Positions 2,230 through 46,362 of a stretch of DNA of 64,000 nt are shown here, piece by piece. The position numbers and the translations under genes were made by a program. Position 1 is the stretch's first letter; each line of letters starts with the position of its first letter. The stretch is taken from contig NC_086097.1 of the NCBI RefSeq assembly GCF_963921235.1, positions 10,726,001 to 10,790,000 of the forward strand, read 5' to 3'. A model generated the notes under the pieces. That model had not been told where the DNA came from. It worked only from the letters and a program-made list of their open reading frames with translations, and searched no databases. The DNA is from Mobula hypostoma. Its lineage: Eukaryota.

Positions 2230-4290
2230 GCTGATCTGATTATTGACTACAGCAGGAGGAAACTGGAGGTCCATGAGCCAGTTCCCTACAGGGGATCAGA
2301 TGTGGAGACGGTCAGCGACTTTAAGTTCCTCAGCATTAACATTGCAGAGGATCTGTCCTGGTTCTAACACATAAGTGCTATTACAAAGAAGTCATGGCAG
2401 TGACTCTATTTACCTGGAAGTTTGTGCGAATTTGACATACCATCTAAAACTTTAACAAATTTCTGTAGATACGCAGTGGAGAGTATAGTGATTGGTTGCA
2501 TTACAGCCTAGTATGGGGACACCAGGTACAAAGGTATAAGAAACACAATATTGATGTTAAGGATACTATCAGAATGAGCTATCCAAGTGCAAAAAGATTT
2601 GTTTGTTTTATTGACTACACAAAAGCATTTGATAAAGTGAAGCACAATAAGTTATTTGAAATATTACAGAAAACTCTAGATCTAAGTTCGAAAGACCTCC
2701 GCCTAATCAGAAATCTGTACTGGGAACAAACTGCCGTTGTAAGAATAGATGGAGAAGTGAGTCAGTTTACAAAAATCAAGAGAGGCGTTAGACAAGGCTG
2801 TGTTTTCTCCCCTGATTTATTTAATGTGTACAGTGAAACAATATTACAAAAAATAACAGACATCTTGGGAATCAAAGTTGGCGGTGAAAACATCAATAAT
2901 TTCAGATATGCAGATGACATTGTGTTAATTGCAAGTACGGAGGAAGAACTACAAAACTTAATTGATATAATTGTTGAAGAAAGTGCAAAAATGGGTCTAT
3001 CTATCAATTGCAAAAAGACAGAATGTATGGTGATATCCAAAAAGAAGGAGAATCCTATCTGCAGGCTGAGAATAAATGGGGAAGACATAAAAAAAGTAAA
3101 GAACCTTTCCTACTTAGTAAACTGAGTGGCATCAGATGGCAGGTGCGACTTGGACATCAAAAGAAGAATAGGGATAGCAAAAGACACCTTTACCAGAATG
3201 AAGAGTATACTGACCAATACTAAACTAGGCATGACAACCCACCTCAGAGTACTGAAATGTTATGTTTATCCAGTTATGTTATATGGCTCAGAATGTTGGA
3301 CAATATTTAGTAACATGAGGAAATGAACTGTAGCAGCAAAAATGTGGTTTTTGAGGAGGATGCAAAGAATATCATGGACGAAAGGAATATCTAATGAGGA
3401 TGTCATGAACAGAGCAAACGCAAAAAGAAAAATAATATATGAGATCATGAAAAGGCAACGTAACTTCATTGGACATGTAATTAGGAAAGAGGAGTTAGAA
3501 TGCACAGTAATTATGTGAAAGATCGAAGGGAAGAAAGCAAGAGGAAGACAAAAACAAATGATGGTGGAGACAGCAGTCAGAGAATTTTGAAAATGAATAC
3601 CAATGAATTGATCAACTTGACCCGAAACAGGAGTGTGTGGGCCATGGTAGTCAGAGCTCAAACTGGCCATGGCACCTGATGATGATGATGATGGGGACAC
3701 CAATGCCCTTGAGCAGAAAAGCCTACAGAAAGTAGTGGATACAATGCAGTCCATCACAGGTAAAGCCCACCACAGGTAAGCACATCTACATGGAGCAGTA
3801 TCACAGGAAAGCATCATCCATCATCATGGACACCCACTAACCAAACCATGCTTTCTCTTCATTGCTATCATCAGGAAGGAGGTGCAGGAGTCTCATATCC
3901 CACACCATGAGGTTCGGGAAAAATTATTGCCCCTGAACCATCAGGCTCTTGAACCAGAAGGGATAAATTCACTCACTGCAACGCTGAACTGACTCTACAA
4001 TCTTAGGTTATAGGCTCACTTTTAAGAAATCTGCAACTTGTGTTCTCGATATTTGTTGCTTTTTTATTTACTATTATTATCATTATTTTCTTTGTTTGCA
4101 TTTGCACAGTTTGATGGCTTTTGCACATTGGATGTTAGTTTGTCTTTGTATTGTGTATGGTTTTTCATTGATTCTATTGTGTTTCTTTGTTTGTATTTAC
4201 TGTGAATACCTGAAGCAAAATGAATCTCAGGGTAGTATATAGTGACATAGATGTGCTTTGATAATAATTTCACTTTGAACTTTGAAACAT
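2230..4290 (+). mobile_element. Rex1/Babar-type LINE 3' fragment interrupted by an RTE insertion
   Basis: Colinear with the RT/3' region at 50780-51566 (GAGCTGATT.. CTGTCCTGG.. ACTCTATT.. GCATCATCCATCATC); ends in AATAA..ACTTTGAACTTTGA tail. Confidence 0.7.
2525..3690 (+). mobile_element. 5'-truncated RTE-clade LINE (RT, decayed)
   Basis: Motifs FIDYTKAFD, GVRQGCVFSP, RYADD, YGSECWT; (GAT)n 3' tail; 12-bp TSD ATGGGGACACCA at 2513-2524 and 3691-3702. Confidence 0.9.
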
Positions 4291-5166
4291 ACTCTTCATC
4301 CCACTAAGTCCGTGCTGACCATTGATCATCCATTTACACTGAATCTACCAGATTGTAGTGCTCACCCACACACTGGGACTGATTTACAGTGGCCAATCAA
4401 CCTACAGAGCTGAGTACTTTTAGGTACGCTACTCAGTCTTTTCATGGTTATAAGATATGGATACTATCCACTCACAACCCCTCAGGCTCTTAAACTAAAG
4501 GGGTTAACCTTACTCAACTTTTCTTCGTCATTGAAATGTTCCCACAATCTATGGATTCACTTTCAAGGACTCTTCTCATGTTCTCGATATTTATTGCTTG
4601 TTTATTTGTTATTGTTATTTCTTATTTTATGTATTTGCGCAGTTTGCCTTTTGCACACTGGCTGAAAGCCCAAGTTGGTAAAATCTTTCATTGATTTGAT
4701 TATGGTTACTATTCAATTATAGATATATTGAGTATCCCCGCAAGAAAATAAATTTCAGGGTTGTAGTCCAGTTCTGTGAAAGCACTTCAGATTTTCTCTC
4801 TCAAGTAACAGAGAACTTCCTCCACAAATGTTACAAGATATCACTTTTTAGAAATGTAAATTTTCTGAAAAGCACCAATGAAATATTGAATCACATTCAG
4901 GATGTAAGAGGAAGAATAAAACTTAAAAGGCTTAAACTGAATAAGATTAAATACTTCTATCTCAAACTATGCGAACTACAGACAAATGTATAAATCCTCA
5001 GACCAATGTGTTAAATATGTAATGTTATTGCTGACTGAACATTAAATCTATTGAAAATCAGTTTAAAATCTGAAGTTTTCTGGTAGGATAATGCCAACTT
5101 TACTGCTTCAACTGTTGGGATCCTGAGATTTTATTCATTTTGCAGAGAGATCCTGGTTTACATAGT

Positions 5167-27617: not shown

Positions 27618-28952
27618 AGAAACATAGAAACATAGAAAATAGGTGCAGGAGTAGGCCATTTGGCCCTTCGAGCCTGCACCGCCATTCAGTATGATCATGG
27701 CTAATCATCCAACTCTGTACCCTGTACCTGCCTTCCCTCCATACCCCCTGATCCCTTTAGTCACAAGGGCCACATCTAACTCCCTCTTAAATATAGCCAA
27801 TGAATGTGCCTCAACTGTTTCCTGTGGCAGAGAATTCCACAGATTCACCACTCTCTGTGTGAAGAAGTTTTTCCTAATCTCGGTCCTAAAAGGCTTCCCC
27901 TTTATCCTCAAACTGTGACCCCTCGCTCTGGACTTCCCCAACATCGGGAACAATCTTCCTGCATCCAGCCTGTCCAATCTCTTTAGGATTTTATACGTTT
28001 CAATAAGATCCCCCCTCAATCTTCTAAATTTCAACGAGTACAAGCCTAGTTGATCCAGTCTTTCATCATATGAAAGTCCTGCCATCCCAGGAATCAATCT
28101 GGTGAACCTTCTTTGTACTCCCTCTATGGCAATGATGTCTTTCTTCAGATTAGGGGACCAAAACTGCACACAATACTCCAGGTGTGGTCTCACCAAGGCC
28201 TTGTACAACTGCAGCTGTACCTCCCTGCTCCTGTACTCGAACCCTCTTGCTATGAATGCCAGCATACCATTCGCCTTTTTCACCACCTGCTGCACCTGCA
28301 TGCCCACTTTCAATGACTGGTGTATAATGACACCCAGGTCTCGTTGCACCTCCCCTTTTCCTAATCGGCCACCATTCAGATAATAATCTGTTTTCCTGTT
28401 CTTGCCACCAAAGTGGATAACCTCACATTTATCCACATTAAATTGCATCTGCCATGAATATGCCCACTCACCTAACCTATCCAAGTCACCCTGCATCCTC
28501 TTAGCATCCTCTTCACAGCTAACACTGCCGCCCAGCTTCGTGTCATCTGCAAACTTGGAGATGCTGCATTTAGTTCCCTCATCTAAGTCATTAATATATA
28601 TTGTAAACAACTGGGGTCCCAGCACTGAGCCTTGCGGCACCCCACTAGTCACCGCCTGCCATTCTGAAAAGGTCCCGTTTATTCCCACTCTTTGCTTCCT
28701 GTCTGCCAACCAATTCTCTATCCACATCAATACCATACCCCCAATACCGTGTGCTTTAAGTTTGCACACTAATCTCCTGTGTGGGACCTTGACAAAAGTC
28801 TTTTGAAAATCCAAACATACCACATCCACTGGTTCTCCCCTATCCACTCTACTAGTTACATCCTCAAAAAATTCTATGAGATTCGTCAGACATGATTTTC
28901 CTTTCACAAATCCATGCTGACTCTGTCCAATGATTTCACTGCTTTTCAAATG
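27618..28952 (-). mobile_element. Young 5'-truncated CR1 LINE with uninterrupted 414-aa RT C-terminal ORF (27705-28949)
   Basis: [36 protein letters not shown]; (TTTCTATG)n tail at 27618-27640. Confidence 0.95.
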
Positions 28953-30668
28953 TGAAATTTTCTAAAAGTTGATGTAATCCATCATCTGTTAAATTCCACT
29001 ATTTTTTTCTTTCTGGACTTCTCATTATTCCCTCAGGCTTGTTCAGCTGTTGGGCTCCATTTTATTTAGAGATAGAATGCAGAACGTGCCTTTCTGGCCC
29101 AATGAGTTGCGCCGCCCAGCAACACTAGCCTGATCACCAGGCAGTTTACAATGACTAATTAACCTACTAACTGGTAAGTCTTTGGACTGTGCTAAGAAAC
29201 TGGAGCATCCAGAGGAAACCCATGCAGTTAATGGGAACGACAGCAACGGAACTGAACTACGAACTTCAATGCCCTGAGCTGTAATAACGTTATGCTAACA
29301 GCTATGTTACCATGACTCCTCTATGGTTTACTGTTGTGGATGCTTTCCCCAAAACTCTCTCACAATTAAAGCAAACGGTAATAGCCCATGGATCAACCAT
29401 AATTTTACCAGGGTCTGCACAAAGGCTGCCACTTTGAACTATTAAAGGCTCATTCTGATTTCTCTGTCTCTTGCTTTCTTCCTCCCTTTCTCTTTCACTC
29501 TCTCTCTGTCTCTCTTGCCCTCTCATTCACCTTTTTTCTCTTGAGAGAGAAGAGATAGATAGAGATCGAGACACTTAAAACCCATTAAAATCCACAATTT
29601 TCAGCAAGGAGAAGGGTTTTGCAAGCAGTCAACGATTATGTATAATATCTATCTATCTATCTATATATCTGTTGGTTGTCTGTTGATTTCGACAATGACG
29701 ATAGGAACCTGTGCTAAAATGGGAAAGTCCTTGCACTGGGGCATTTCCACTCTCTCGATCTCCGAAGCCCTATTCCAATGATACAGGAGATCATCAGAAC
29801 TGGGGACCTTCTTAGTTGCAGATGATGACTGTGACATCTTCTATGCCTTGCCATGCCCTTTGCTTTCCACAAAGCACTGTAGAACTACAGGTGATCTCAT
29901 CCACCCAGTCCACCAGAGCTGGCTCCGCATGCTAGGACAAGCATGTCACTATCTCACCTGGGTATGAGGCCTACATGCTACCCTCACCTGGTTTAGCCCA
30001 CCTATTGAAGCAGCGTACTGGCATGGGTCCCCTGTCACATTCAAAGAGCTACTTGGAACCACAGGGGAGAGCTGAGTGTCTGGTGGGGACCAAAGGTGGA
30101 TGAACTGTCCCAAGGGGGACACAACAAGCTCCTTCACAGAGGTGTTACCCTCCCTGAACACCCCATACACTGGTACACTATAGTACCATGCACAGGCCTT
30201 AGAGACATATATGTATGTAGCTAAGGTGCCTAAGGCTTCTGCACACTACTGGATTTGTCAATGAGAAGGGGAGAGTGAGTTTATAAATCTGGCAGGAGCA
30301 AATGATGTTGGGAATGTCGAGGGTAGGCGGCATGGGAGGGTGTGGGACAGGTGGCAGCAAAGGAGCGCCAGAGGCAGGGATGGAGGAGGTGGTGCAGGTG
30401 TAGACACACACAGTTCTGAAACACCAGGCAAGGATATTTGATTCCAAACAATTGGTTTATTGATCAATACAGAATGTTTCTCTGGTTCTTCCCACTCCCT
30501 CCCCTTTCTCTTCCCCTTTTCCCGACCATGATAACTTCTCCCTGTCCCCTTCCCACTCTCAGTCCACAACAAAGACCCATATCAGAATCAGGTTTGTCAT
30601 CACTCACGTATGTCATGACATTTGCATTTTTTTTGATGTAGCAGTACAGTGCAATACGTAAAATTACT

Positions 30669-30741: not shown

Positions 30742-31171
30742 TTAATATGTGTATATATATAAAATGTGTTAAGAAAATAAAACAAAAATCAAAGCTAACG
30801 CAGTTACAAATTATTCAAAACATTAACCTGAGCGTTTGGAATTCACTATGGTAAAGCACATGTCAATTAACCAGTTGATAAAAAGCCCATGGAAAATAAA
30901 ACAGAATGAATGAAGTAGTAGAGTTTAAAAGGAATTTTATTTACTATGTACAGTGAAACAACCCCCATTAAAATCACTGGATTTGTGAATCTGCAACAAG
31001 TTGATCCTGGTGCAGGATATGAGAAGTGATGCTACAGCATAAATCATGGCAAATGTCACCAATACTGCACTCAGCATGAGGCCTATGCTTCTCAACATAT
31101 GCATTGAAGTCTGAGCTACACTGTTGTTTGAAAGACTATAAATATCAGCCGTTCCAGCATCAGCCAGCAAG

Positions 31172-31447
31172 TTAGTTACTTACTTAAACCCAATTCCCAC
31201 TGCAGGGGCGGAGGCCACAAACAGTTGCTCACCAGAGTCCTTTATCCTGGGCCAGTCTTTCAAGTTGTCCACAGGCGTAGCCCATCTTCTTGTTGGCAGA
31301 TCCTTTCTCTCCCAGGGATGAGGTCTTTGGGGCTTCTGTTAGCAGTTCTGTAGCTCTTTAGTTTTTAATGGGATGGGGTTGTTAACCCCATGTCCAGCCC
31401 TCCCCCTTTTGCAACTGGGCTTGGGTCCACCCATTGTGGAGTTAATT
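31172..31447 (-). mobile_element. Short retroposon with (TAAG)n tail inserted in the RNF213-like pseudogene
   Basis: 10-bp TSD AGCCAGCAAG at 31162-31171 and 31448-31457. Confidence 0.75.
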
Positions 31448-31707
31448 AGCCAGCAAGAACAGACTCAAAATAATCAGAAGCAGCTGAGGAAATACTTCTG
31501 CGTTAATGAATGAAAATATATTTGTAAATTTAATCATGAAATATACATTTTGGAAATAGGAGTAATTTTAACCATACTTCACTGGAGTTAAAGGAGGAAT
31601 GGTCCAACATTGCTTTTGTTGTCATGACACAATAAAAGATTTGCAGATTTATCTGTGGATTTCCACTTTGTACCATATAGTCTACTGTACAATATAGGAC
31701 TACTTTA

Positions 31708-31867
31708 TGTTGTAATAATACATCGTATTAAGCATGCACTATTAGGCACATATTGATCTGTACGTGGTCAGTTCGGGTTCTGTAAGTAAAAAGCCCCGTT
31801 AAGCTAGCTCCAGTCTCTAGCATTTTTATTTATAGTTTTGTTGTGTAACCCAGCCACATACACAACA
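31708..31867 (+). repeat. 5' LTR (160 bp) of a Gypsy-type element
   Basis: TGTTGT...ACAACA inverted termini; followed 3 nt later by PBS-like TGGTGACGAGG (31871-31881, resembling the complement of the tRNA-Ser(GCT) 3' end). Confidence 0.8.
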
Positions 31868-32253
31868 AATTGGTGACGAGGTTAATGAACCTGCATCGAA
31901 TCGGAACGCCGTGTTTTAATTGATAACGGCACTCAGAAGAGGCAGAGTGAGGCCACGAGTTTGAAAAGAAGCAGGAGTTCAGCCGAAGTCGGGAACGTTG
32001 GGAGACTAAAAGACACGGTTGGAGCCGCGGCGCGTCCAGGCGAGACCACAGCCGGCGCTGAACCCCAGGGTTGAGGGTCTGCCTGCCTCAGAAGGGAGAT
32101 TTAAAAAAAGAGCGACACACGCATCTAGCCAGAGTACGCTCGCGATGTTAGCGGAAAAAAAGGTCTTGTGAGTTGAAAAGAAAACAGGGGACCAGGGTTA
32201 AATTAATGAGGGACTGGGGCTAAATTAAACAAGGATAAATTAACACAACAAGG

Positions 32254-33672
32254 ATGGGGTTAATAGGAACCATTACAGCATTTGATAGTGGCATTGAAGA
32301 CTGGGAAAGAATAGAGTTATATTGTGATGCTAACAATGTTAATGAAGAAAAGAAAGCCAGTGTCATACTTACTGTAATGGGCGCGAAAATATACTGCCTG
32401 CTACGGAGCTTGTTAGCCCCTGAAAAGCCAGCTGACAAAGTGTTCAAGCAAATAGTAGACCCTCTCCAACAGCATTTAAACCCCAAACCACTGATCATTG
32501 CTGAAAGATTTAAATTCTATGATCGGAATCAGAGCAAAAATGAAAGCATTTCTGAATATTGTGCTGAATTGCGCAAATTATCAGAATATTGCCAATTTTT
32601 AGCCACAGGGTGGTGAATCTATGGAATTTGTTGCCACGGGCCAAGTCATTGGGTGTATTTAAGACAGAGATTGATAGGTATCTGAGTAGCCAGGGCAGCA
32701 AAGGTTATGGTGAGAAGGCGGGGGAGTGGCACAAAATGTGAGAATGGATCAGCTCATGATAAAATGGCAGAGCAGACTCGATGGGCCGAATGGCCGACTT
32801 CTGCTCCTTTGTCTTATGGTCTAATTTGGAGCTGGTTTATCAGACGCATTGAGGGATAGGTTAGTGTGTGGCATGCACTGTGAAACCACACAGAAGAAGC
32901 TCCTATGTGAAAAAGACCTTGGGTTCGAGGAAGCGCTAAACATCTCAATATCATTAGAAACAGCCCCACCAGGTACTTTAGAGATACAACAAAAATCTCT
33001 GGAATATGCTACGAATAAAATATCACTGAGCAGAAATGAAGGAGGGAAATGTTACCGTTTTGGAACAGGTCACATGACCCTGATGGTTGTTGGTTTAATG
33101 ACAAAGAATGCAGAAACTGTGGCAAACAAGGCCACGCTGGCAGAGTGTGCAAAGCTAGTAAACAGCAGGAAAAGGGCAAAATCCAGGGAAACAATAAACC
33201 CCAGGAAGGAAAATACAAGGTACACAAAATGAAAGAAGGCAGTTCTGATGAAAGCAGTTCCAATGAAAATGACTGAGATGAAACTGAGTTGTTTTGTCTG
33301 CAACTTTACAGCGTGAAAGAGACAGATGATCGAAGAATAATATGGATCACTCCACAAGTGGCAGGCGTGAGACTGAAAATGGAGTTGGATACAGGCTCAG
33401 CTTTAACAGTGATCTCTGTACATGACTACAAACAACTGTTTTCTCACATACCTCTGAAACGAACTAAACTACTGCTAAAGACTTACACAGGACAGAAAGT
33501 GCGCCCCGAAGGTAAAATTAAAGTGACAGTGACCTACAGAGACAAAACACAGCAGCTGAACCTCTATATACTGAAAAATGGAGGACCACCATTGCTGGGA
33601 CGTGAATGGCTCAGGAAAATCCAGTTGGATTGGCACACCATCAAGGCACTAGATGTGTCAACAAAGGAGTGA
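32254..33672 (+). pseudogene. Gypsy (Mag/K02A2.6-like) gag with zinc knuckles and aspartic protease; frameshifted and interrupted by a CR1 fragment
   Basis: ..PKPLIIAERFKFYDRNQ..ESISEYCAELRKLSEYCQF|GAGLSDALRDRLVCG; CRNCGKQGHAGRVC (CCHC); MELDTGSALTVIS..LLGREWL. Confidence 0.9.
32599..32822 (+). mobile_element. CR1 3' end inserted into gag
   Basis: CR1 3' consensus (GTGGTGAATCTATGGAAT..CTTATGGTCT) with TSD AATTT at 32594-32598 and 32823-32827; removing it restores CQFGAGLSDALRDR. Confidence 0.88.
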
Positions 33673-34065
33673 AGCTCGGCTGGGAAGATATCTGCAGCTC
33701 TCCTCTCACCCATTGTCGACTATTGCAATGACGAGGAGGAGCTAGACAGCATTGACAATGAAGCCGAGCACAGTATCCGTGGCCGCGACTCGGATGAGGA
33801 TTCGGAGGATGCAAGGGAGACAGATATTGCCAATAAGCAGGATGATGAAGACTACCTAGAAGTAAAAGAGCAGATGTACCAGGAGAAATTGACATCTCTG
33901 AAAAGACAGCTACAGCAGTTACAGGAAGGCACTTAGCAGGAGGATCAGAGAAGGATGAAGGAACTAAATCAACAGTACAAGGAAGGAATACGAATTGCAG
34001 AGCTTTTTCTGCAACTGGAGACAGAAAAAGTGGAAAGGAATTATATTAGAGAGAAGAAAGAAGTG
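33669..34065 (+). pseudogene. SUDS3: Processed (intronless) 5' fragment of SUDS3, Sin3-HDAC complex subunit
   Basis: From 33688: (I/M)[95 protein letters not shown]. Recalled human SUDS3: [92 protein letters not shown] has become ATA; TAG at 33934. Confidence 0.93.
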
Positions 34066-34772
34066 GAGAGAGCACAGGAGCGCCCACCTCAGACCGGCCT
34101 GAGCCGCAACCACCTCACGCAGCCCGTCAACAGCATGAGTGAGACCGAGACGGAGCAGCAATCCAAACAGCAGCGGCAGCAACAGCCAGACAAACCCAAA
34201 CCCCCGGGGAGAAGACAGTCATCGCAGCAAAGGTTCTTGGAACTGTAAAGTGGTTCAACGTATGGAATAGATATGGATTCATCAACAAGAATGATACAAA
34301 GGAAGATGTGCTTGTACATCGGACTGCTATAAAAAAGAATAATCCATGGAAATACCTCCGCAGTGTTGGAGACGGTGAAACTGTGGAGTTCGACGTAGCG
34401 GAAGGCGAGAAGGGTGCAGAAGCAGCAAACGTAACTGGTCCCGGAGGAGTTCCAGTCCAAGGAAGCCGATATGCTGTGGATAGAAATCATTATCATCATC
34501 ACAACCCTTGCTGCCCAGGTCCACTACGTAATTACCAACAGGACATTGAAGGTGGAGAGAAAGGAGATAGATCAGAGACAGCAACAGGTGGAGAAAACCA
34601 AGATGATCAAAATCAGCAACATCGCCCTGCTTACAGAAGACAGCGTTACTCACCTTACTTTGTTCATCGTCGCTATGGTCGCTGCCCACAATATAGCAAC
34701 CAGCCTCAGGGAGAAATTACTGAGGGTGGTGAAATAAATGAAAACCAGGTTGCTGGGGAAGAAGGTAAACCT
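34066..34772 (+). pseudogene. YBX1: Processed (intronless) 5' part of YBX1: 5' UTR, cold-shock domain and part of the basic/acidic tail
   Basis: ATG at 34135; after a 1-nt frameshift at ~34205: [110 protein letters not shown]. Confidence 0.93.
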
Positions 34773-35640
34773 AACAGAGGACAAAATCAATTCCATGCAA
34801 ACAGAACAGCTTTTGCTCAAGGTAAATTTTGAACCAATCATTTCCACCATTGAGAATCATACACTTAATCCTTTGCCGGAAAGTTCCTTTTGCATGTACA
34901 TATTTTAAATCCTCAGCCAATGTGTCTTGTTTTTCACAAAGTTGGGAAACAGCATCAAAACAGAGGCGAATTCTGGCAACAAATTGTAAGGTTTCTATTG
35001 TTGTATTTTCACACTTGTGCTGAATGTGCACCTGAAGGAATTCTCCCTCTTGAGTCCGACAGATGGCACTGCAGGTGATCCTTAATATCAGCAAAACTGT
35101 ACTTTAACAGCAGCTTAAGAACAATGGTACGAACAACATGATTTTGATCAACTGTGAAATCAAATGGTGAAGGATTAATGGTAAAGTACTGATCTTTCTG
35201 CGAGTCATTGGATTGCCCCGACTTTTAGACAATAGACAATAGGTGCAGGAGTAGGCCATTCAGCCCTTCGAGCCAGCACCACCATTCACTGTGATCATGG
35301 CTGATCATCCACAATCAGTACCCTTTTCCTGCCTTTTCCCCATATCCCTTGACTCCGCTATTTTTAAGAGCTGTATCTAACTCTTTCATGAAAGAATCCA
35401 GAGAATTGGCCTCCACTGCCTTCTGAGGCAGAGCATTCCACAGAACCACAACCCTATGTGTGAAAAAGTTTTTCCTCAACTCCATTCTAAATGGTCTACC
35501 CCTTATTCTTAAACTGTGGCCTCTGGTTCTGGACTCCCCCAATAACTAGCAGAGACTTCAGATCACCAACCACTTCTTTTGTTGGTGACAAGTCACCTTT
35601 GAAGTAGACATTTGCAAAGATTCAGCATGTCATCTAAATC
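34773..35640 (-). pseudogene. RNF213: RNF213-like E3-module fragment (best-conserved block), split by a CR1 3' end
   Basis: VYFKGDLSPTKEVVGDLKSLLV | SPFDFTVDQNHVVRTIVLKLLLKYSFADIKDHLQ | [43 protein letters not shown]. Recalled human RNF213: ICFKDNAPPEKEVIESLLSLLF..SPFNDVVDKTPVIRSVILKLLLKYSFHDVKDYIQ..SVEYLQEVARIRLCLD..NDWHRVYLVRKLSSQRGMEFV. Confidence 0.88.
35226..35542 (-). mobile_element. CR1 3' end inserted in the RNF213-like sequence
   Basis: GESRTRGHSLRIRGRPFR..NFFTHRVV..WNALP; (ATTGTCT)n tail. Confidence 0.88.
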
Positions 35641-35649
35641 TTTAACAAA

Positions 35650-36248
35650 CTTCTATAGATGAGCAGTGTAGAGTTGCAAAATTACCTGGTATGAAAACAC
35701 CGGAATGGAAAAGCTTACAAAAGGTAAAGGATACAGACCATTCCATCACAGCTAAAGTCTCCCCACTATTGATCATTTCTACACAGAGTGCTGTCGTAGG
35801 AAAGCAGCATCCATCATCAAGGATTCCCACCACTCAGGCCATGCTCTCTTCTCACTGCTGCCATCAGGAGGAAAGTATAGAAGTCTCAGGACCCCACCAC
35901 CAGGTTCTGGAACAGTTATTACCCCTCAACCATCAGCCCCTTGAACCAAAGGAGATAATACTACTCAACTTCACTTGCCCCATCACTGAACTGTTCCCAC
36001 GTACTATGGATTCACTTTCAAAGACTTCACATCCTATGTTATTGATATTTATTGTTTACTTTTATATTTACTAATCTTATCTTTTTGTACTTGCACATTC
36101 GTTGTTTGTTTGTCTCGTGTGTAGTTTTTCATTGATTCTATTGTTTTTCTTTGTATTTACTGAGAGTGCCTGCTAAAAAGAATCTCAGGAGTGTATATAG
36201 TAATATAAATGTACTTTGATAATAAATTAACTTTGAACTTTGAACTTT
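35650..36248 (+). repeat. Rex/Babar-derived 3' fragments. Similar copies at ~36945-37345(-), 42690-43090(-), 4470-4765(+), 7690-7880(+)
   Basis: Same GCAGCATCCATCATCAAGG..CTGCCATCAGG..AATAAA..ACTTTGAACTTTGA architecture as 3700-4290. Confidence 0.6.
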
Positions 36249-38221
36249 GTTCTGGGGTGGGAGGTCCATATGTGGATGTGAGTGGGTAGAAAGGGGTTTC
36301 TTTTGCTGTTATTTTATTTTATTGACGTTGCTGTGTTATTCTGATAAATATTGTGGACATACGACGTTAGCACCAGAATGTGTGGTGACACCTGTGGGCT
36401 GCCCCCAGCACATTCTTAAGTTGTGATGCAAACAATACATTTCACTGTTTTGATTAGTCGGAACCTGAATCTGCACAATCAGAGCTGCTCGTTTTGTGTT
36501 TGTGCATGTACTAGGCAGTTAAAATAAAAACTAAAGACACTGGAAAAGCTCAACAGGTCAGGCAGCATCTATGGAAAAAGAAACTAAATTAACATTACAA
36601 ACTTTACAGGACGAAGGCTTTTCACCACTTCAATTTCTCTTCCCTCTGGTGCAACCAGACTTGTTGAGTATTTCGAGTATTTTGTGGTTTTATCTTAAAT
36701 ATCACACATGCCTCTGAGGTAACCTCAGATACTCAGGATGGGTGGAGCTTTTCAGCCTGCCTGGATCTGTGGATGTCGTTAAAGACAAGTCGAAGAAATG
36801 CTCTTCATATCACTCAGTTCTTGTAGTCCAAGATATGAGACCTCTCAGCTGTTCTATCATTGCTGCTGTTACATAAATGTTCAATAAAACACACAAAAAT
36901 TGTGTTGCTCAGATAACAAATGTGTATTCCAGTATATTTCAATGTTCAAAACTCAAACTAAATTCATTAACAAAGGACATATGTCAACAGATACAACCCT
37001 GAGATTTATTTTCTTGTGAGCATACTCAACAAATCTATAGAATAATAATAACAGAATTAATAAAAGACCACCCAACTAGTGCGTTCAACCAGAGTGCAGA
37101 AGACAACAAACTGTGCAAACTGGAAAAGATTAAACAATAATAATAGATAAATAAACAGTAAATAATGAGAACGTGAGATGAAGAGTCCTTGAAAGTGAGT
37201 CCGTTGGTTGTCGGAACTTCTCAATAATGAGGTAAGTAAAGTTATCCCCTTTGGTTCAAGAGTCTGATGGTTGAGGGGTAGTAACCGTTTCTGAACCAAT
37301 TGCTGTGAGTCCTGAGGCTCCTATATCTTCTTCCTCATGGCAGCAGCATCATTTTGATTGTTGCAAAAGAGCAAATAGTGAAACTTGACATTGAGATCTA
37401 AATTTATTCAGCCTTTATTCCAACTCGGTTCTTAAACTGTTATCCAGTTCCCAATAGTATGGTAGACAAAACTACAAAGACCTCCATTAAGGATTAATGA
37501 CATCTGCCTCAGCAAAGCTAATAGTGTTATGCCCTTTCTTCAGTTTTCATCAATTCATTTTGAACATTTCATTCTAAGCTGCCAAACATCCTTTTTTTTT
37601 GATATTGTTGTGGTTGCTGAGCTTGGCAGTTAGCTTGCAGACATTTCATCACCAGTCGAGGTGACATCCTCAGTGCGCAGTCTTTTACTCTGGGAGTGCT
37701 CACATCTATTTAGGCCCCTGTTCACTTGCGTCAGTCCTGATTGGCTGCCCCTTCAGTTGACCTTTGAATTCTCTTTGGTCTATGAACTCTTAAGAGCCAA
37801 AGAAATGTGTGTCAATGGAATGCAAACGCTGCAACGTCAAACGCCTCAACCCGAGTTACCAATATGCATCATCATCCTTTCTTTAATAATCAGACAAGCA
37901 ATTGAAGGGACAACTAACCGGCTCATTAGTTCACTGCCAGAGATATCACTGAGGATGTGTTTTACCTCATGAATTAATAAATGATCTTGACCTTGAGTAT
38001 GAGTGTGCTCACAAGGAAACAGAATTTTGAAAGCGAACAAAAAAACTTTGGAGAATAATGCATATTGAAAGCCCATGTGTTGAGTGGATCAGTATTGTAA
38101 TGGGTAAGGCCACCAAAGGGAAAAGGCTGTTGCTAATCTGGAGTGAGAACAGCCATGATGGTATTACAGGCTTTTTGCCCAGCTCTTGCTAGTCGTTTAC
38201 TAAAATATTCCAGAAACCGTT

Positions 38222-38545: not shown

Positions 38546-41500
38546 ATACAGGGATGCTCTCTTCCCTGATGCTCTGGGCTCCCAACCAAAGGTTTGAGCA
38601 TTCCACTCTCACGACCTCGCAGAGCAAAATGCCTGCTGTGGTTGGCCAAATTTTAAATTCCAGTGAACAGTATATTTTACAAATGTGAGTAGATTTACCT
38701 CTGGAGCGAGCGAAAGAGCATGTTCAGACATGAAAATTAGGAACAAGTGCAGGGCAAACTCCGACTCCAGCTTGCTCTATCAGTTGATAAGCCATGATGA
38801 AATGGTGGAGTAGACTCGATGAGCCAAATGGCCTAATTCTGCTTCTATGTCTTATGGTCTGATAAGATCATGGCTGATCTGACTGTAAACTCAATGCCAG
38901 ATTGCTAATTATCTGTGGTAACTTGTAATTTTTCTTATCTACCCACACTTCAAAATTATTCAAAGACTCTGCTTCTACTGTGCTTAAAGAGAATTCTAAA
39001 GGCTTGAGATCATCTAAGAGCAATAAGAAATCACCACGCCTATATGTCCTAAATCTAAACCCTCTTGTTTTTAAATGATGACTTCTTAATTCTGCATTCT
39101 CCCACTAAAGAAAACATCCTGTCCATATTCACCCTATTAAGACCTTGGAGAGTTTCAATCAAGTTCACTCTCAGGTTTTTGACCCACAGAAGCCCAGCCT
39201 CTCTATACTTCAAAATACAAGCTGCCTACTCAGGGTGTCAATCTTCACTGAACTGTTTCCAGTGCATTTCCCTCCTTCCTTGAATAAAGAGCCCAATATT
39301 ATAGAAAGTACTCCTTGTGGCCTCAACAATACCCTATAGAGCAGGAAAATACTTCTCCACTTCTGTGTTCACTTCCTGCAGCAAAGAAATAATAATATTC
39401 TACTATTTCTTTATCTAGCTTCAGCTGAATATCATGAGCCTTGTACACCTCTGCGGCAAGCCATAGAGCATTGGACTTCTAGGTTTCTCAGGCACCTGTA
39501 TTTACCTATCGTTGTCATTAAGCCCTTGTGCTTGCTGTTTACTCTTGTCCAGTTAATTGTGACTGGCACAGGTTTTCAGTATTTCATGATTATGTAAAGC
39601 GGGCACCTGTTTAGCACTCATTGCGGGGTCCTTGTGTTGAGAATAATTTGTCTTGCAGTGTCACTCAGTCATGCCACCAATATTATATTGGAATTCCTAT
39701 GTATAACCTCTTTTTCCTGTTCCTACATGGGAGTCTGCAGTTCCTCCACATCAGAGTTCAGTTGTTGCCAGCGCTCACCATGACACTGAATGTTTACCTT
39801 TCTGAAACATACCCACATTTCTCTATCTAAATAAAATCCAGCATCCTCTCCCCAACCGCTGAGTAACTGAGTCCCAATATGCCCAACAGTTCTTATGAGC
39901 TCTAATTTCATGGCAGTTTCTCAAAAAATGTACGAAGAGTCAACCACGTCTGTTGTATGGGGTTCACCCAATATTTGAACATTCAATGCTGAGCAAAGGC
40001 TTTACCTGAAAACACTGAAATTATTTGCAAAGTACTCACTTCTGAGTGTGAGAATTAAGCAAGTGAGTGCAAGTAGCAGGCATAATTATCGTCCCTGACG
40101 ATGCACAGGCTGCTAAGTACCTGCCGCTCTCACAGTGTGTTGTGTACAGTGCAAGGCAGGGAGCTAAATACCTTCTCAACAATCCCCTGAACTGGAAGCT
40201 TTCTTCAAGGCTTTGAATGAGAAAACTTCATGAAACTGCAGAAAGATAAGTAAAACACATATTTTCATGATCAGCATTAAACAAGATAAAGCACGCATGC
40301 AACGTTCTATAGCTATGCTGTGGAGTGAACTTGTGGTGCAATGATAGCTTAAGAGTGATGAAGGAGGGAAAGATGGCGCAGAGGTTTTTGTGGACCTGGG
40401 CGACTTCTTCCAATTCATTTGTGCCACCATTTAAATCTCCTCTTCTCATGTCTTTTTTCCTTCTCAAGGTGGCTGGAGTCCTGTCAGACAGCTGCGCTCA
40501 AACTACATTCTTCATGGGTGGTGGTTCTCACTCTCAGAACTTGCTGAACGGCCCGGGGTTTCAGTATCTTTAAGAGCGGCCTGGAAGATGGGTGTCTTTG
40601 GCATGCGACCCTGTGAACGACCCAATTCCTCGCTGATGTCACAGCGGATTAAGACATTGGGACAGCAGGCGCACCTGTTGGAGGCCTCTCACGCTGGTGA
40701 ATGAGAGTCTGCTGGATCTTGAGTCGGGGAACTCAAACAAATGATGCTGCAGATTGTAACATCGAAACAGTCAACTGTTGGCCTCCCCGCTCGCTGTGGT
40801 AGAGTGATATCTCTCTGTCCTTCACTAATGAGAGAGAGATTCTAACTGAGATATTGAAGTGTTGGAATGAACAATAATTTCTGATGGGCTCTATATCACG
40901 GTCTCTGGGGGCTTTGCTATTGCTGGCATGGTGGGTGGTGGGGTTGAAGAGTTTCCTGGAGCAAGTGGGGGGAGGGGAAGGGGGGAGGATTGATGCTTTT
41001 GCAGCTACTTGTGCATGGGAAGGGGAGGGGGCTTTAGGGTTCTAACGTTTTTCTGTCATTCATTATTTGGGTTTTTTTTTCGCTGTTTCATGGATATATG
41101 TGAAGAGTAAGAATTTCAGGCTGTATACTATATACATTCTCTGAGAATAAATTGCATCATTGAACCATTAATCCATTGAACAATAAACATAATACTTCCT
41201 TCAGAGTACGTCTACTAATTGCTTATCAATGTTAGGAAGGCTTAAGACCCACAGATATTGCTGTTTCAAGGGCAAATAGAGTGGATAGAGATGGATGTGT
41301 TTCAACCATGTTTGCTCCAAGTTAAAGTCCAAACTAATCTGTGCAGGAACATAGAACATAGAATAGTACAGCACAGTACAGGCCCTTCGGCCCACATTGT
41401 TGTGCCGACCCTCAAACCCTGCCTCCCATATAACCCCCCACCTTAAATTCCTCCATATACCTGTGATGTAATACCTTCCTTATATACCTGTGAGGAAGTG

Positions 41501-43876: not shown

Positions 43877-46362
43877 TGGAAAGGTGAAAAAATAACAGGG
43901 TTGTTATCATGGGTGACTTTAACTTCCCTAATATTGATTGGCACCTGATTAGTTCCAAGGGTTTAGATGGGGCAGAATTTGTTAAGTGTGTCTAGGATGG
44001 ATTCCTGTCACAGTATGTGGACAGGCCGACCAGGGGGAATGCCATACTAGATCTAGCACTAGGTAATGAACCGGGTCAGGTCACAGATCTCTCAGTGGGT
44101 GAGCATCTAGGGGACAGTGACCACTGCTCCCTGGCCTTTATAATTATCATGGAAAAGGATAGGACCAAAGAGGACAGGAAAATTTTTAATTGGGGAAAGG
44201 CAAATTATGAGGCTATAAGGCTAGAACTTGCGGGTGTGAATTGGGATGATGTTTTTGCGGGGAAATGTACTATGGACATGTGGTCGATGTTTAGAGATCT
44301 CTTGCGGGATATAAGGGATAAATTTGTCCCGGTGAGGAAGATAAAGAATGGTAGGGTGAAGGAACAATGGGTGACAAGTGAGGTGGAAAATCTACTCAGG
44401 AGGAAGAAGGCAGCATGCATGAGGTTTAGGAAGCAAGGATCAGATGGGTCTATTGAGGAATATAGGGAAGCAAGAAAGGAGCTTAAGAAGAGGCTGAGAA
44501 GAGCAAGAAGGGGGCATGAGAAGGCCTTGGCGAGTAGGGTAAAGGAAAACCCCAAGGCATTCTTCAATTATGTGAAGAAAAAAAGGATGACAGGAGTGAA
44601 GGTAGGACCGATTAGAAATAAAGGTGGAAAGATGTGCCTGGAGGCTGTGGAAGTGAGCGAGGTCCTCAATGAATACTTCTCTTCGGTATTCAACAATGAG
44701 AGGGAACTTGATGATGGTGAGGACAATATGAGTGAGGTTGATGTTATGGAGCATGTTGATATTAAGGGAGAGGAGGTGTTGGAGTTGTTAAAATACATTA
44801 GGACAGATAAGTCCCCGGGGCCTGATGGAATATTCCCCAGGCTGCTCCACGAGGCGAGAGAAGAGATTGCTGAGCCTCTGGCTGGGATCTTTATGTCCTC
44901 GTTGTCCACGGGAATGGTACCGGAGGATTGGAGGGAGGTGAATGTTGTTCCCTTGTTCAAAAAAGGTAGTAGGGATAGTCCGGGTAATTATAGACCAGTG
45001 AGCCTTATGTCTGTGGTGGGAAAGCTGTTGGAAAAGATTCTTAGAGATAGGATCTATAGGCATTTAGAGAATCATGGTCTGATCAGGGACAGTCAGCATG
45101 GCTTTGTGAAGGGCAGATCGTGTCTAACAAGCCTGATAGAGTTCTTTGAGGAGGTGACCAGGCATATAGATGAGGGTAGTGCGGTGGATGTGATCTATAT
45201 GGATTTTAGTAAGGCATTTGACAAGGTTCCACAGGGTAGGCTTATTCAGAAAGTTAGAAGGCACGGGATCCAGGGAAGTTTGACCAGGTGGATTCAGAAT
45301 TCACTTGCCTGCAGAAGGCAGAGGGTGGTGGTGGAGGGAGTACATTCAGATTGGAGGATAGTGACTAGTGGTGTCCCACAAGGATCTCTTCTGGGACCTC
45401 TACTTTTCGTGATTTTTATTAACGACCTCGATGTGGGGGTAGAAGGGTGGGTTGGCAAGTTTGCAGACGACACAAAGGTTGGTGGTGTTGTAGATAGTGC
45501 AGAGGATTGTCAAAGATTGCAGAGAGACATTGGTAGGATGCAGAAGTGGGCTGAGAAGTGGCAGATGGAGTTCAACCCGGAGAAGTGTGAGGTGGTACAC
45601 TTTGGAAGGACAAACTTCAAGGCAGAGTACAAAGTAAATGGCAGGATACTTAGTAGTGTGGAGGAGCAGAGGGATCTCGGGGTACATGTCCACAGATCCC
45701 TGAAAGTTGCCTCACAGGTGGATAGGGTAGTTAAGAAAGCTTATGGGGTGTTAGCTTTCATAAGTCAAGGGATAGATTTTAAGAGTCGCAATGTAATGAT
45801 GCAGCTCTATAAAACTCTGGTTAGGCCACACTTGGAGTATTGTGTCCAGTTCTGGTCACCTCACTATAGGAAGGATGTGGAAGCATTGGAAAGGGTACAG
45901 AGGAGATTTACCAGGATGCTGCCTGGTTTAGAAAGTATGCATTATGATCAGAGATTAAGGGAGCTAGGGCTTTACTCTTTGGAGAGAAGGAGGATGAGAG
46001 GAGACATGATAGAGGTGTACAAGATAATAAGAGGAATAGATAGAGTGGATAGCCAGCGCCTCTTCCCCAGGGCACCACTGCTCAATACAAGAGGACATGG
46101 CTTTAAGGTAAGGGGTGGGAAGTTCAAGGGGGATATTAGAGGAAGGTTTTTTATTCAGAGAGTGGTTGGTGCGTGGAATGCACTGCCTGAGATAGCGGTG
46201 GAGGCAGATACACTAGTGAAGTTTAAGAGACTACTAGACAGGAATATGGAGGAATCTAAGGTGGGGGCTTATATGGGAGGCAGGGTTTGAGGGTCGGCAC
46301 AACATTGTGGGCCGAAGGGCCTGTACTGTGCTGTACTATTCTATGTTCTATGTTCTATGTTC
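43877..46362 (+). mobile_element. Young CR1 LINE, 5'-truncated within the endonuclease; 757-aa open ORF2 portion (44017-46290)
   Basis: VVIMGDFN (43900), SDH, KSPGPDG, NYRPVSL, YMDFSKAFDKVP, GVPQGSLLGP, KFADDT; one stop at ~43993; (TTCTATG)n tail 46339-46362. Confidence 0.95.

Follow-up and report, generated by a model that had tools for sequence, protein, structure and literature searches.

The locus described here raises the question of how intronless copies of two host genes came to lie, one behind the other and in the same orientation, directly after the gag and protease region of a long terminal repeat (LTR) retrotransposon. It is part of a 64 kb stretch of Mobula hypostoma DNA (positions 10,726,001–10,790,000 of contig NC_086097.1, RefSeq assembly GCF_963921235.1), which is the whole of what was analysed and is called the window below; coordinates are those of the window unless another copy is named. 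An earlier description made from the letters alone (the sequence-only reading) had placed a Gypsy element at 31708–34772, in which the mRNAs of SUDS3 and YBX1 had been captured in place of pol. The present analysis makes it highly probable that positions 31669–35609 are a decayed, 3'-truncated and non-autonomous copy of a Ty3/gypsy element, belonging to a dispersed family that was built up by serial captures. The copy is regarded as 3'-truncated because homology to the other copies stops at 35609, and both it and the family are regarded as non-autonomous because pol is wholly missing. Its parts are listed here, L numbers denoting other loci of the same genome (L058 being an autonomous relative) and C75 the site of the multi-exon YBX1 gene.

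31669–31867, plus strand: 5' LTR, TG...CA, 199 bp, matching both LTRs of 17 other copies
31871–31887, plus strand: primer-binding-site-like sequence TGGTGACGAGGTTAATG, 3 nt past the LTR, read directly
32254–32598, plus strand: N-terminal part of gag, ATG at 32254, an open reading frame (ORF) colinear with the Ty3/gypsy polyprotein P0001 by way of a sister copy
32599–32822, no strand assigned: unrelated short repeat of 224 bp with flanks AATTT, a later insertion in gag
32823–33276, plus strand: C-terminal part of gag with a CCHC zinc knuckle, ORFs 87–91% identical to other copies
33277–33669, plus strand: aspartic protease, LDTGSA (Pfam RVP, gag-asp_proteas, Asp_protease_2)
33670–33675, plus strand: protease/SUDS3 crossover, where homology to the autonomous element stops (L058, L008 and the window compared with one another)
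33676–34060, plus strand: SUDS3 (SDS3) complementary DNA (cDNA), 12 nt of 5' untranslated region (UTR) and about 125 codons (Pfam Sds3, E 1.5e-4)
34048–34788, plus strand: YBX1 cDNA, 87 nt of 5' UTR, ATG at 34135, exons 1–6 and part of exon 7 (exon matches on C75)
34050–34060, plus strand: 11-nt microhomology AGAGAAGAAAG, common to the SUDS3 coding sequence and the YBX1 5' UTR (L008/L051, window and C75)
34779–34788, plus strand: 10-nt microhomology GGACAAAATC, common to YBX1 exon 7 and the progenitor element that carried the RNF213-like fragment (C75, window and L022)
34789–35226, minus strand: RNF213-like fragment, antisense, of which a longer version is present in L051
35227–35540, no strand assigned: unrelated repeat of 314 bp, a second later insertion (alignments of other copies skip from 35226 to 35541)
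35541–35609, minus strand: remainder of the RNF213-like fragment and end of the element homology

The order LTR, primer-binding site, gag, protease, SUDS3 and YBX1, with both passengers sense to the element, was present as the sequence-only reading had described it, and its borders were revised by a local BLAST of the window against 29 non-self loci. The LTR had been given as 31708–31867; its end was retained, while alignment to the other copies moved its start to 31669. The proposed end of the element at 34772 did not stand, since homology continues to 35609 and YBX1 itself runs to 34788, although the YBX1 5' segment as such was recovered. After the LTR the putative primer-binding site reads TGGTGACGAGG, and TGGCGACGAGG is found at this position in other copies. 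The protease was detected by ORF scan with E values of 1e-5 to 1e-3 for the three Pfam families (1e-5 to 4e-4 for RVP and gag-asp_proteas); it is 88.8% identical to L058 up to 33675, and its frame runs into a private TGA at 33670–33672. In 17 sister copies TG...CA LTRs, a primer-binding site and a polypurine tract were found, as is usual for Ty3/gypsy elements, the window copy having only the 5' LTR and the putative primer-binding site; a CCHC gag and a DTG protease, likewise usual, are present in the window, and the Ty3/gypsy order of pol (protease, reverse transcriptase (RT), RNase H, integrase) was found only in the relatives P0001 and L058.

The prediction that several loci share these junctions and have two LTRs was borne out in the M. 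hypostoma assembly (3.48 Gb). When positions 31708–34830 were used as the query, the best 40 of 5502 first-look candidates were scored, this large number being probably due to the unrelated repeat contained in the query; 39 other places carried gag-protease-SUDS3 at 87–91% identity, five of them with YBX1 as well. The gag-protease-SUDS3 segment was contained in all 29 fetched loci. A pattern of 34 places across the protease/SUDS3 junction, searched with up to three mismatches, matched the genome 327 times, and a 44-nt pattern across the SUDS3/YBX1 junction matched ten times; the reversed patterns used as controls gave no match in either case. First-look counts reached at least 619 for a mid-SDS3 peptide and at least 343 for the SUDS3 3' part.

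LTR pairs, 86.4–94.4% identical, were found at 17 loci, where the 3' LTR is immediately preceded by the tract AAAATAAAAGGGGAGGAG. Seven of these loci (L008, L009, L012, L015, L016, L017 and L029) have perfect 5-bp target duplications, three (L004, L005 and L021) have duplications with one mismatch, and a clear duplication was missing in the other seven. Nine copies of the YBX1 type stop exactly at ...ACACAACA, and the flanks of ten YBX1-bearing copies are mutually unrelated. In complete copies, a remnant of the SUDS3 3' UTR, the polypurine tract and the 3' LTR come after the RNF213-like fragment. It should also be noted that L005 has sequence like the primer-binding-site region after its 3' LTR and that the LTR alignment of L028 runs into extra sequence, either of which may reflect a tandem or nested arrangement.

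Sequencing runs gave a further view of the junctions. The share of the sampled words of 33400–35000 that was present in a run stayed below one half throughout, being 0.22–0.35 in the 14 best runs, from seven organisms. Four runs were compared at 88% likeness, of which the best-matching may be the source sample and hence not independent. Contigs of organisms B and C bridge both the protease/SUDS3 and the YBX1/RNF213 junctions, and a possible RNA run of organism A bridges the former; the protease/SUDS3 junction is spanned by contigs from three organisms and the YBX1/RNF213 junction by contigs from two. The autonomous form, the form without YBX1 and the true YBX1 mRNA were seen among the loose ends in these runs. 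In run X15, which is guessed to be RNA, depth was 20,000–68,000 on YBX1 and 120–720 on the element parts, and this hints at transcription of the element family.

These observations bear on the view that SUDS3 and YBX1 are independent pseudogenes made by long interspersed nuclear elements (LINEs) within a dead gypsy copy, which was later spread by segmental duplication or joined by an assembly artefact. LINE-type RT ORFs do occur in the window and its flanks, and vertebrate retrocopies are usually LINE-made according to the available part of a preprint (10.64898/2026.06.26.734816). Against this, neither segment is bordered by poly(A) or by a target duplication, just as the sequence-only reading had stated for the junctions between the parts; YBX1 has kept its 5' end and lost its 3' end, whereas LINE-made copies tend to the reverse; the copies stop precisely at their LTRs, with 5-bp duplications beside them, and lie in unrelated flanks; and contigs of other runs span the junctions. 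A LINE origin is hardly credible on this evidence, and the rejection of LINE-made retrocopies in the sequence-only reading was upheld.

The statement that the passengers stand in place of pol was examined through the relatives of the element. P0001 is a polyprotein of 1311 amino acids (aa) with protease, RT, RNase H and integrase domains, with YLDD near residue 600 and the integrase core near residue 1030, and its relatives are named gypsy-integrase-like by their sources. The gag-protease of a sister copy is 60% identical to P0001 over 403 aa. A 302-aa piece of P0001 (protease end and RT) had at least 131 genome matches at 59–75% identity, taken from the best 130 of 34,433 candidates; one copy of the autonomous relative, L058, was fetched from among these matches. 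It has an open frame of 858 aa from protease through RT-RNase H to integrase and is 91.6–92.1% identical to L008 in DNA across gag and protease. Homology between L058 and L008 stops at ...AAGGAGGGCAGC, where L008 goes on with the 12 nt of SUDS3 5' UTR and the ATG, and begins again at AGAGAAGACC, with about 60 nt left to the polypurine tract. From this gap it follows that about 2.7 kb of pol (L058 2386–5100) was exchanged for about 1.29 kb of SUDS3 cDNA. RT-RNase H-integrase thus lies in L058 exactly at the position that SUDS3 occupies, as the claim of replacement had required.

SUDS3 in the window has a start codon decayed to ATA, and its identity as SDS3 was established by way of sister copy L051, which matches PDB 4zqa with an E value of 6e-30. 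In copy L008, which measures 3339 bp from LTR to LTR, the SDS3 frame begins with the ATG and reaches the natural C-terminus, after which come about 350 nt of 3' UTR. The founder insert, about 1.29 kb long, began with 12 nt of 5' UTR, continued through a near-complete coding sequence and ended in about 350 nt of 3' UTR. In most copies a near-complete coding sequence is present, in frame with the protease. The capture of a SUDS3 5' segment, as it had been described, is accordingly correct for the window and incorrect for the original event, which brought in a near-complete cDNA whose remainder was later replaced by YBX1.

SDS3 proteins of rays in the databases have the residues LKENLIAE, and all eight residues are missing from every element copy. 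The same residues occur in true mouse SDS3, and their absence from the element copies is visible for example in L051 800–1339. Several annotated 'SDS3-like' proteins also have no LKENLIAE, and public annotation in this way names some element-borne copies. The captured SUDS3 mRNA was probably an alternative splice form lacking LKENLIAE, unless these residues were lost at capture.

The SUDS3 exon borders were deduced from isoform differences in an alignment of SDS3 proteins. A pattern consisting of an exon end followed by GTR had one perfect match, on C78, and the other 59 matches read the spliced continuation. In the 8 kb fetched at C78 the parent has four exons, 94.5–96.8% identical to L008, with introns of about 3.1 kb, 1.0 kb and 0.15 kb between them, so that the proposed loss of introns from SUDS3 holds for at least three introns, one of them AT-AC. 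At this locus (L059, G000:C78:8391001-8399000, minus strand) a 22-nt micro-exon, CTTAAATC...GACCAG, was observed, as was an intron with the ends ATATCCTT...AC (ATATCC...AC), which we take to be of the U12-type AT-AC class. The annotated isoform P0127 has a frame-shifted tail because the micro-exon is skipped. The odd C-terminal tail of an annotated isoform was also tried as a means of locating the SUDS3 parent and was rejected, the tail being the next exon out of frame and the element copies matching it too.

For YBX1, the segment gave a Pfam CSD match (E 3.9e-21) and a PDB match to zebrafish YB-1 (E 3.4e-49), and a 1-nt gap near 34200 breaks its frame in the window. Positions 34048–34788 have seven exon matches on C75 at 90–100% identity, each with GT-AG borders, from which it follows that six introns are gone from the element-borne YBX1; the intron loss proposed earlier was thereby verified against the parental locus. 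That both passengers begin in a 5' UTR was likewise found, with 12 nt for SUDS3 and 87 nt for YBX1. Relative to L008, YBX1 replaced about 290 nt of SUDS3 (about 2740–3029).

A search of the genome with the YBX1 protein gave 64 rows (99 of 99 candidates scored), which group into about 31 intronless loci, the multi-exon gene on C75 and one paralogue on C12. Each of the 15 intronless loci that were examined as DNA has the SUDS3-YBX1-RNF213 arrangement. Among the 16 remaining intronless loci, 15 lie within a few hundred bases of a match to the RNF213-like fragment and five match the 44-nt junction pattern. The YBX1 copies end at parent positions 738–742, inside exon 7, in 15 of 15 cases; each differs from the parent by 4.3–7.2%, and only two differences are common to all 15. 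This star pattern suggests a single capture followed by quick amplification. In a gag-protease tree of 41 rows with one autonomous outgroup, from which six copies with coverage below 70% were dropped, 11 rows of the YBX1 type and one other row form a clade with a local support of 0.992.

With both parents in hand (30 kb fetched at C75 for YBX1 and 8 kb at C78 for SUDS3), transduction in the manner of a retrovirus can be considered, in which the element inserted upstream of or within a host gene, read-through or spliced chimeras arose and recombination restored the 3' end. That both sense passengers begin in their 5' UTRs would agree with such a course. However, no parental promoter or intron is retained, only 12 nt of SUDS3 5' UTR follow the protease, and no element copy lies beside the exons in the fetched 30 kb and 8 kb, all of which makes this route very improbable.

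A third passenger had been missed by the sequence-only reading, as had the two later repeat insertions. Window positions 34779–35609 are shared with a subfamily without YBX1, and in L051 the corresponding insert measures 932 bp. On its minus strand lie a RING finger (Pfam zf-C3HC4, 6e-10) and two stretches that match RNF213 chains at residues of about 3500–4330 (E 6e-15 and 3e-7); these two findings together identify the insert as an antisense RNF213-like fragment. The identification was made via L051 only, the minus-strand ORF of the window itself (34771–35103) having given no Pfam family and no usable ESM Atlas match. In L051 the insert is flanked by an imperfect 8–12-nt duplication of SUDS3 sequence, and other copies have different left borders of the fragment and have lost the C-terminal part of SUDS3. 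The fragment had 201 first-look candidates in the genome, and all ten that were examined lie inside this element; the possibility that it is a separate abundant repeat was rejected, since all ten loci are copies of the element. The proposal of two captures by one lineage is therefore retained as to the lineage and revised as to the number, which is at least three acquisitions.

The following course of events explains the locus best. The founder kept the LTR, primer-binding site, gag, protease, polypurine tract and second LTR, lost RT, RNase H and integrase, and gained a copy of spliced SUDS3 mRNA in frame with the protease. Autonomous relatives, which the genome still contains, would have supplied the enzymes for copying and inserting the chimera, bringing it to several hundred copies. 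One lineage next acquired the antisense RNF213-like fragment inside SUDS3; in a sub-lineage the first 741 nt of spliced YBX1 mRNA took the place of the 3' half of SUDS3, and this form spread to about 31 loci including the one in the window. SUDS3 and YBX1 would both have been acquired by RT switching, at short identities, between the RNA of the element and host mRNAs packaged along with it, and the copies would since have decayed neutrally, by about 4–7% each. Template switching is suggested because the YBX1 junctions have microhomology and neither poly(A) nor filler, and because element sequence was replaced as described in the available part of Tan et al., 2016 (PMC5131818).

It is also conceivable that cDNA or DNA was captured in a genomic copy at a double-strand break or by microhomology-mediated repair, and that this copy stayed transcribed and was then mobilised; the chimera would in that case have arisen as DNA rather than in a virus-like particle. 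Microhomology of 10–11 nt is typical of repair joins too, and the antisense RNF213-like piece with its short imperfect duplication in L051 fits an insertion better than a simple switch; a repair-type join would be the more likely route for that fragment. For the captures as a whole, repair is considered improbable, given that element sequence was replaced and not just interrupted (about 2.7 kb of pol by SUDS3 and about 290 nt of SUDS3 by YBX1), that this pattern of replacement is the one given for LTR-mediated retroposition in the consulted part of PMC5131818, and that a replication-linked process accords with the occurrence of three such events in a single lineage.

Several points weigh against the proposed reading of a mobilised family with serial captures by template switching. 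The microhomology on which template switching at the YBX1 junctions is inferred would fit equally well a microhomology-mediated joining of cDNA into a genomic copy, and it concerns the two YBX1 junctions, not the two founding SUDS3 junctions. A simple minus-strand template switch would not predict the antisense RNF213-like piece or its flanking duplication. Mobilisation in trans by an L058-type lineage is inferred from the 92% identity of one copy. The insertion of the window copy itself cannot be verified, its 3' LTR being missing: no second LTR was found in the window, the LTR query having matched one place in the whole 64 kb. A 39-nt pattern from SUDS3 exon 1 had 86 matches in the genome, none of them on C78. 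The genome copy numbers, finally, are lower bounds, as decayed copies escape the patterns.

The reading frames raise the question of whether the passengers were of use to the element. The protease-to-SUDS3 junction is in frame and still open in 27 of the 38 copies with the full 308-nt junction segment; the SUDS3-to-YBX1 frame is common to copies without private frameshifts, and one of 12 complete segments is still open. It is possible, if unlikely, that the founder encoded a continuous Gag-protease-SDS3 and the YBX1 subfamily a Gag-protease-SDS3(1-125)-linker-YB-1(1-218), and that these host modules helped the defective element. A subunit of the Sin3/HDAC corepressor and an RNA-chaperone cold-shock domain might in that event blunt silencing or aid RNA packaging, which would explain how the element came to exceed its helpers in number and would be a counterpart to the repeated uptake of cold-shock domains by bird retroviruses. 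The chance of two in-frame, stop-free junctions is roughly estimated at about 3–10%. Crude pairwise Nei-Gojobori ratios of nonsynonymous to synonymous substitution (dN/dS) over 46 copies, with shifted frames as controls, were 0.46 for gag (controls 0.68 and 0.64), 0.49 for protease (0.60 and 0.77) and 0.54 for SUDS3 (0.60 and 0.84). Third codon positions were the most variable in gag and protease and not in SUDS3. These values point weakly to constraint on gag and protease in the active lineage and show no clear purifying selection on SUDS3, which would weigh against a function of the host modules. In a search for annotated Gag-protease-SDS3 fusion proteins, the Sds3 domain was found in none of the best 120 matches, which is in itself weak evidence.

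Some further features of the window may be mentioned. The repeat within gag is missing at all 29 other loci, whose alignments skip from 32598 to 32823 with a 5-nt overlap. A similar short repeat lies at 38793–38883, and in one frame the three repeat copies (32599–32822, 35227–35540 and 38793–38883) yield a conserved peptide resembling …RVVNLWNSLP, with no Rfam match; an Rfam scan of 31000–36500 found no families. Positions 31669–32598 (LTR, leader and start of gag) are about 71–77% identical to most copies and 84% to L005, the remainder of the window copy being 87–91% identical to other copies, and this uneven identity makes the family look like a mosaic from recombination between subfamilies. 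At 43996–46287 (plus strand) and 27708–28961 (minus strand) there are open frames of 764 and 418 aa that are reverse-transcriptase-like (...GKSCLTNLIEFFEDV...); these are probably LINE-type elements, and the region is repeat-rich.

Many apparent SUDS3 and YBX1 'pseudogenes' exist in this genome because the element amplified its captured copies, and it is concluded that single captures gave rise to hundreds of SUDS3 copies and, with one possible exception, to the approximately 31 intronless copies of YBX1. A preprint (10.64898/2026.06.26.734816) places SUDS3, along with MIPOL1, SDF2L1, SLU7 and ZNF276, at the top of the retrocopy parents in cartilaginous fishes; its available part discusses transcription bias and selective retention and offers no LTR explanation. 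The present family would be a simpler cause of the SUDS3 excess, at least in this genome. Censuses which count each retrocopy as an independent, LINE-driven and possibly selected event would misread such genomes.

Like the processed pseudogenes made by LINEs, the passengers are dispersed intronless copies of highly expressed host genes, whereas here there is no poly(A) or duplication of the single segments, the 5' end is kept, the 3' end is truncated and the examined copies are bounded by the LTR structure of the element. Acutely transforming retroviruses are replication-defective and helper-dependent and carry spliced host coding sequence, often fused to gag; in contrast, no infectious cycle or oncogene is implied here, where germline insertions have decayed neutrally. 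Of the features of LTR-mediated retroposition, replacement of element sequence, microsimilarity at the YBX1 junctions and loss of introns (six from YBX1 and at least three from SUDS3) were found. In the part of Tan et al., 2016 (PMC5131818) consulted, a retrocopy likewise lies between discontinuous parts of an LTR element and replaces internal ORF sequence, and the chimeras have junction microsimilarity, lost introns and no poly(A), some joining several genes. A chimeric locus described there shows signs of acting as a non-autonomous element that was retroposed again, with a few secondary insertions, whereas one chimera has here given at least 327 junction-sharing copies with at least three nested acquisitions, in a cartilaginous fish, which is outside the taxa named in that abstract. 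Maize Bs1 (PMC13317346, as far as its available text goes) is also a non-autonomous LTR element with three host-gene segments and a hybrid reading frame; it differs in being a plant element, the present family having as first passenger a near-complete coding sequence joined to gag-protease in frame, one antisense passenger and hundreds of copies. A cellular cold-shock domain of the Y-box type inside a reverse-transcribing element is known from birds, where 46 endogenous retroviruses (ERVs) with this domain and several independent captures are reported in the consulted part of He et al., 2025 (PMC12287698). Those carriers are ERV-A/B and ERV-G, whereas a pol-less Ty3/gypsy element is the carrier here, with a single capture whose parent and junctions are resolved. 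Literature on SUDS3 with LTR retrotransposons and on cartilaginous-fish retrocopies contained no description of this family that could be found. The mechanism is already known from LTR-mediated retroposition and from Bs1; what is new is this family, its scale and its serial captures, and it provides a fully resolved vertebrate case in which an LTR retrotransposon served several times over as a gene shuttle, with parents, helper, junctions and order of events identified.

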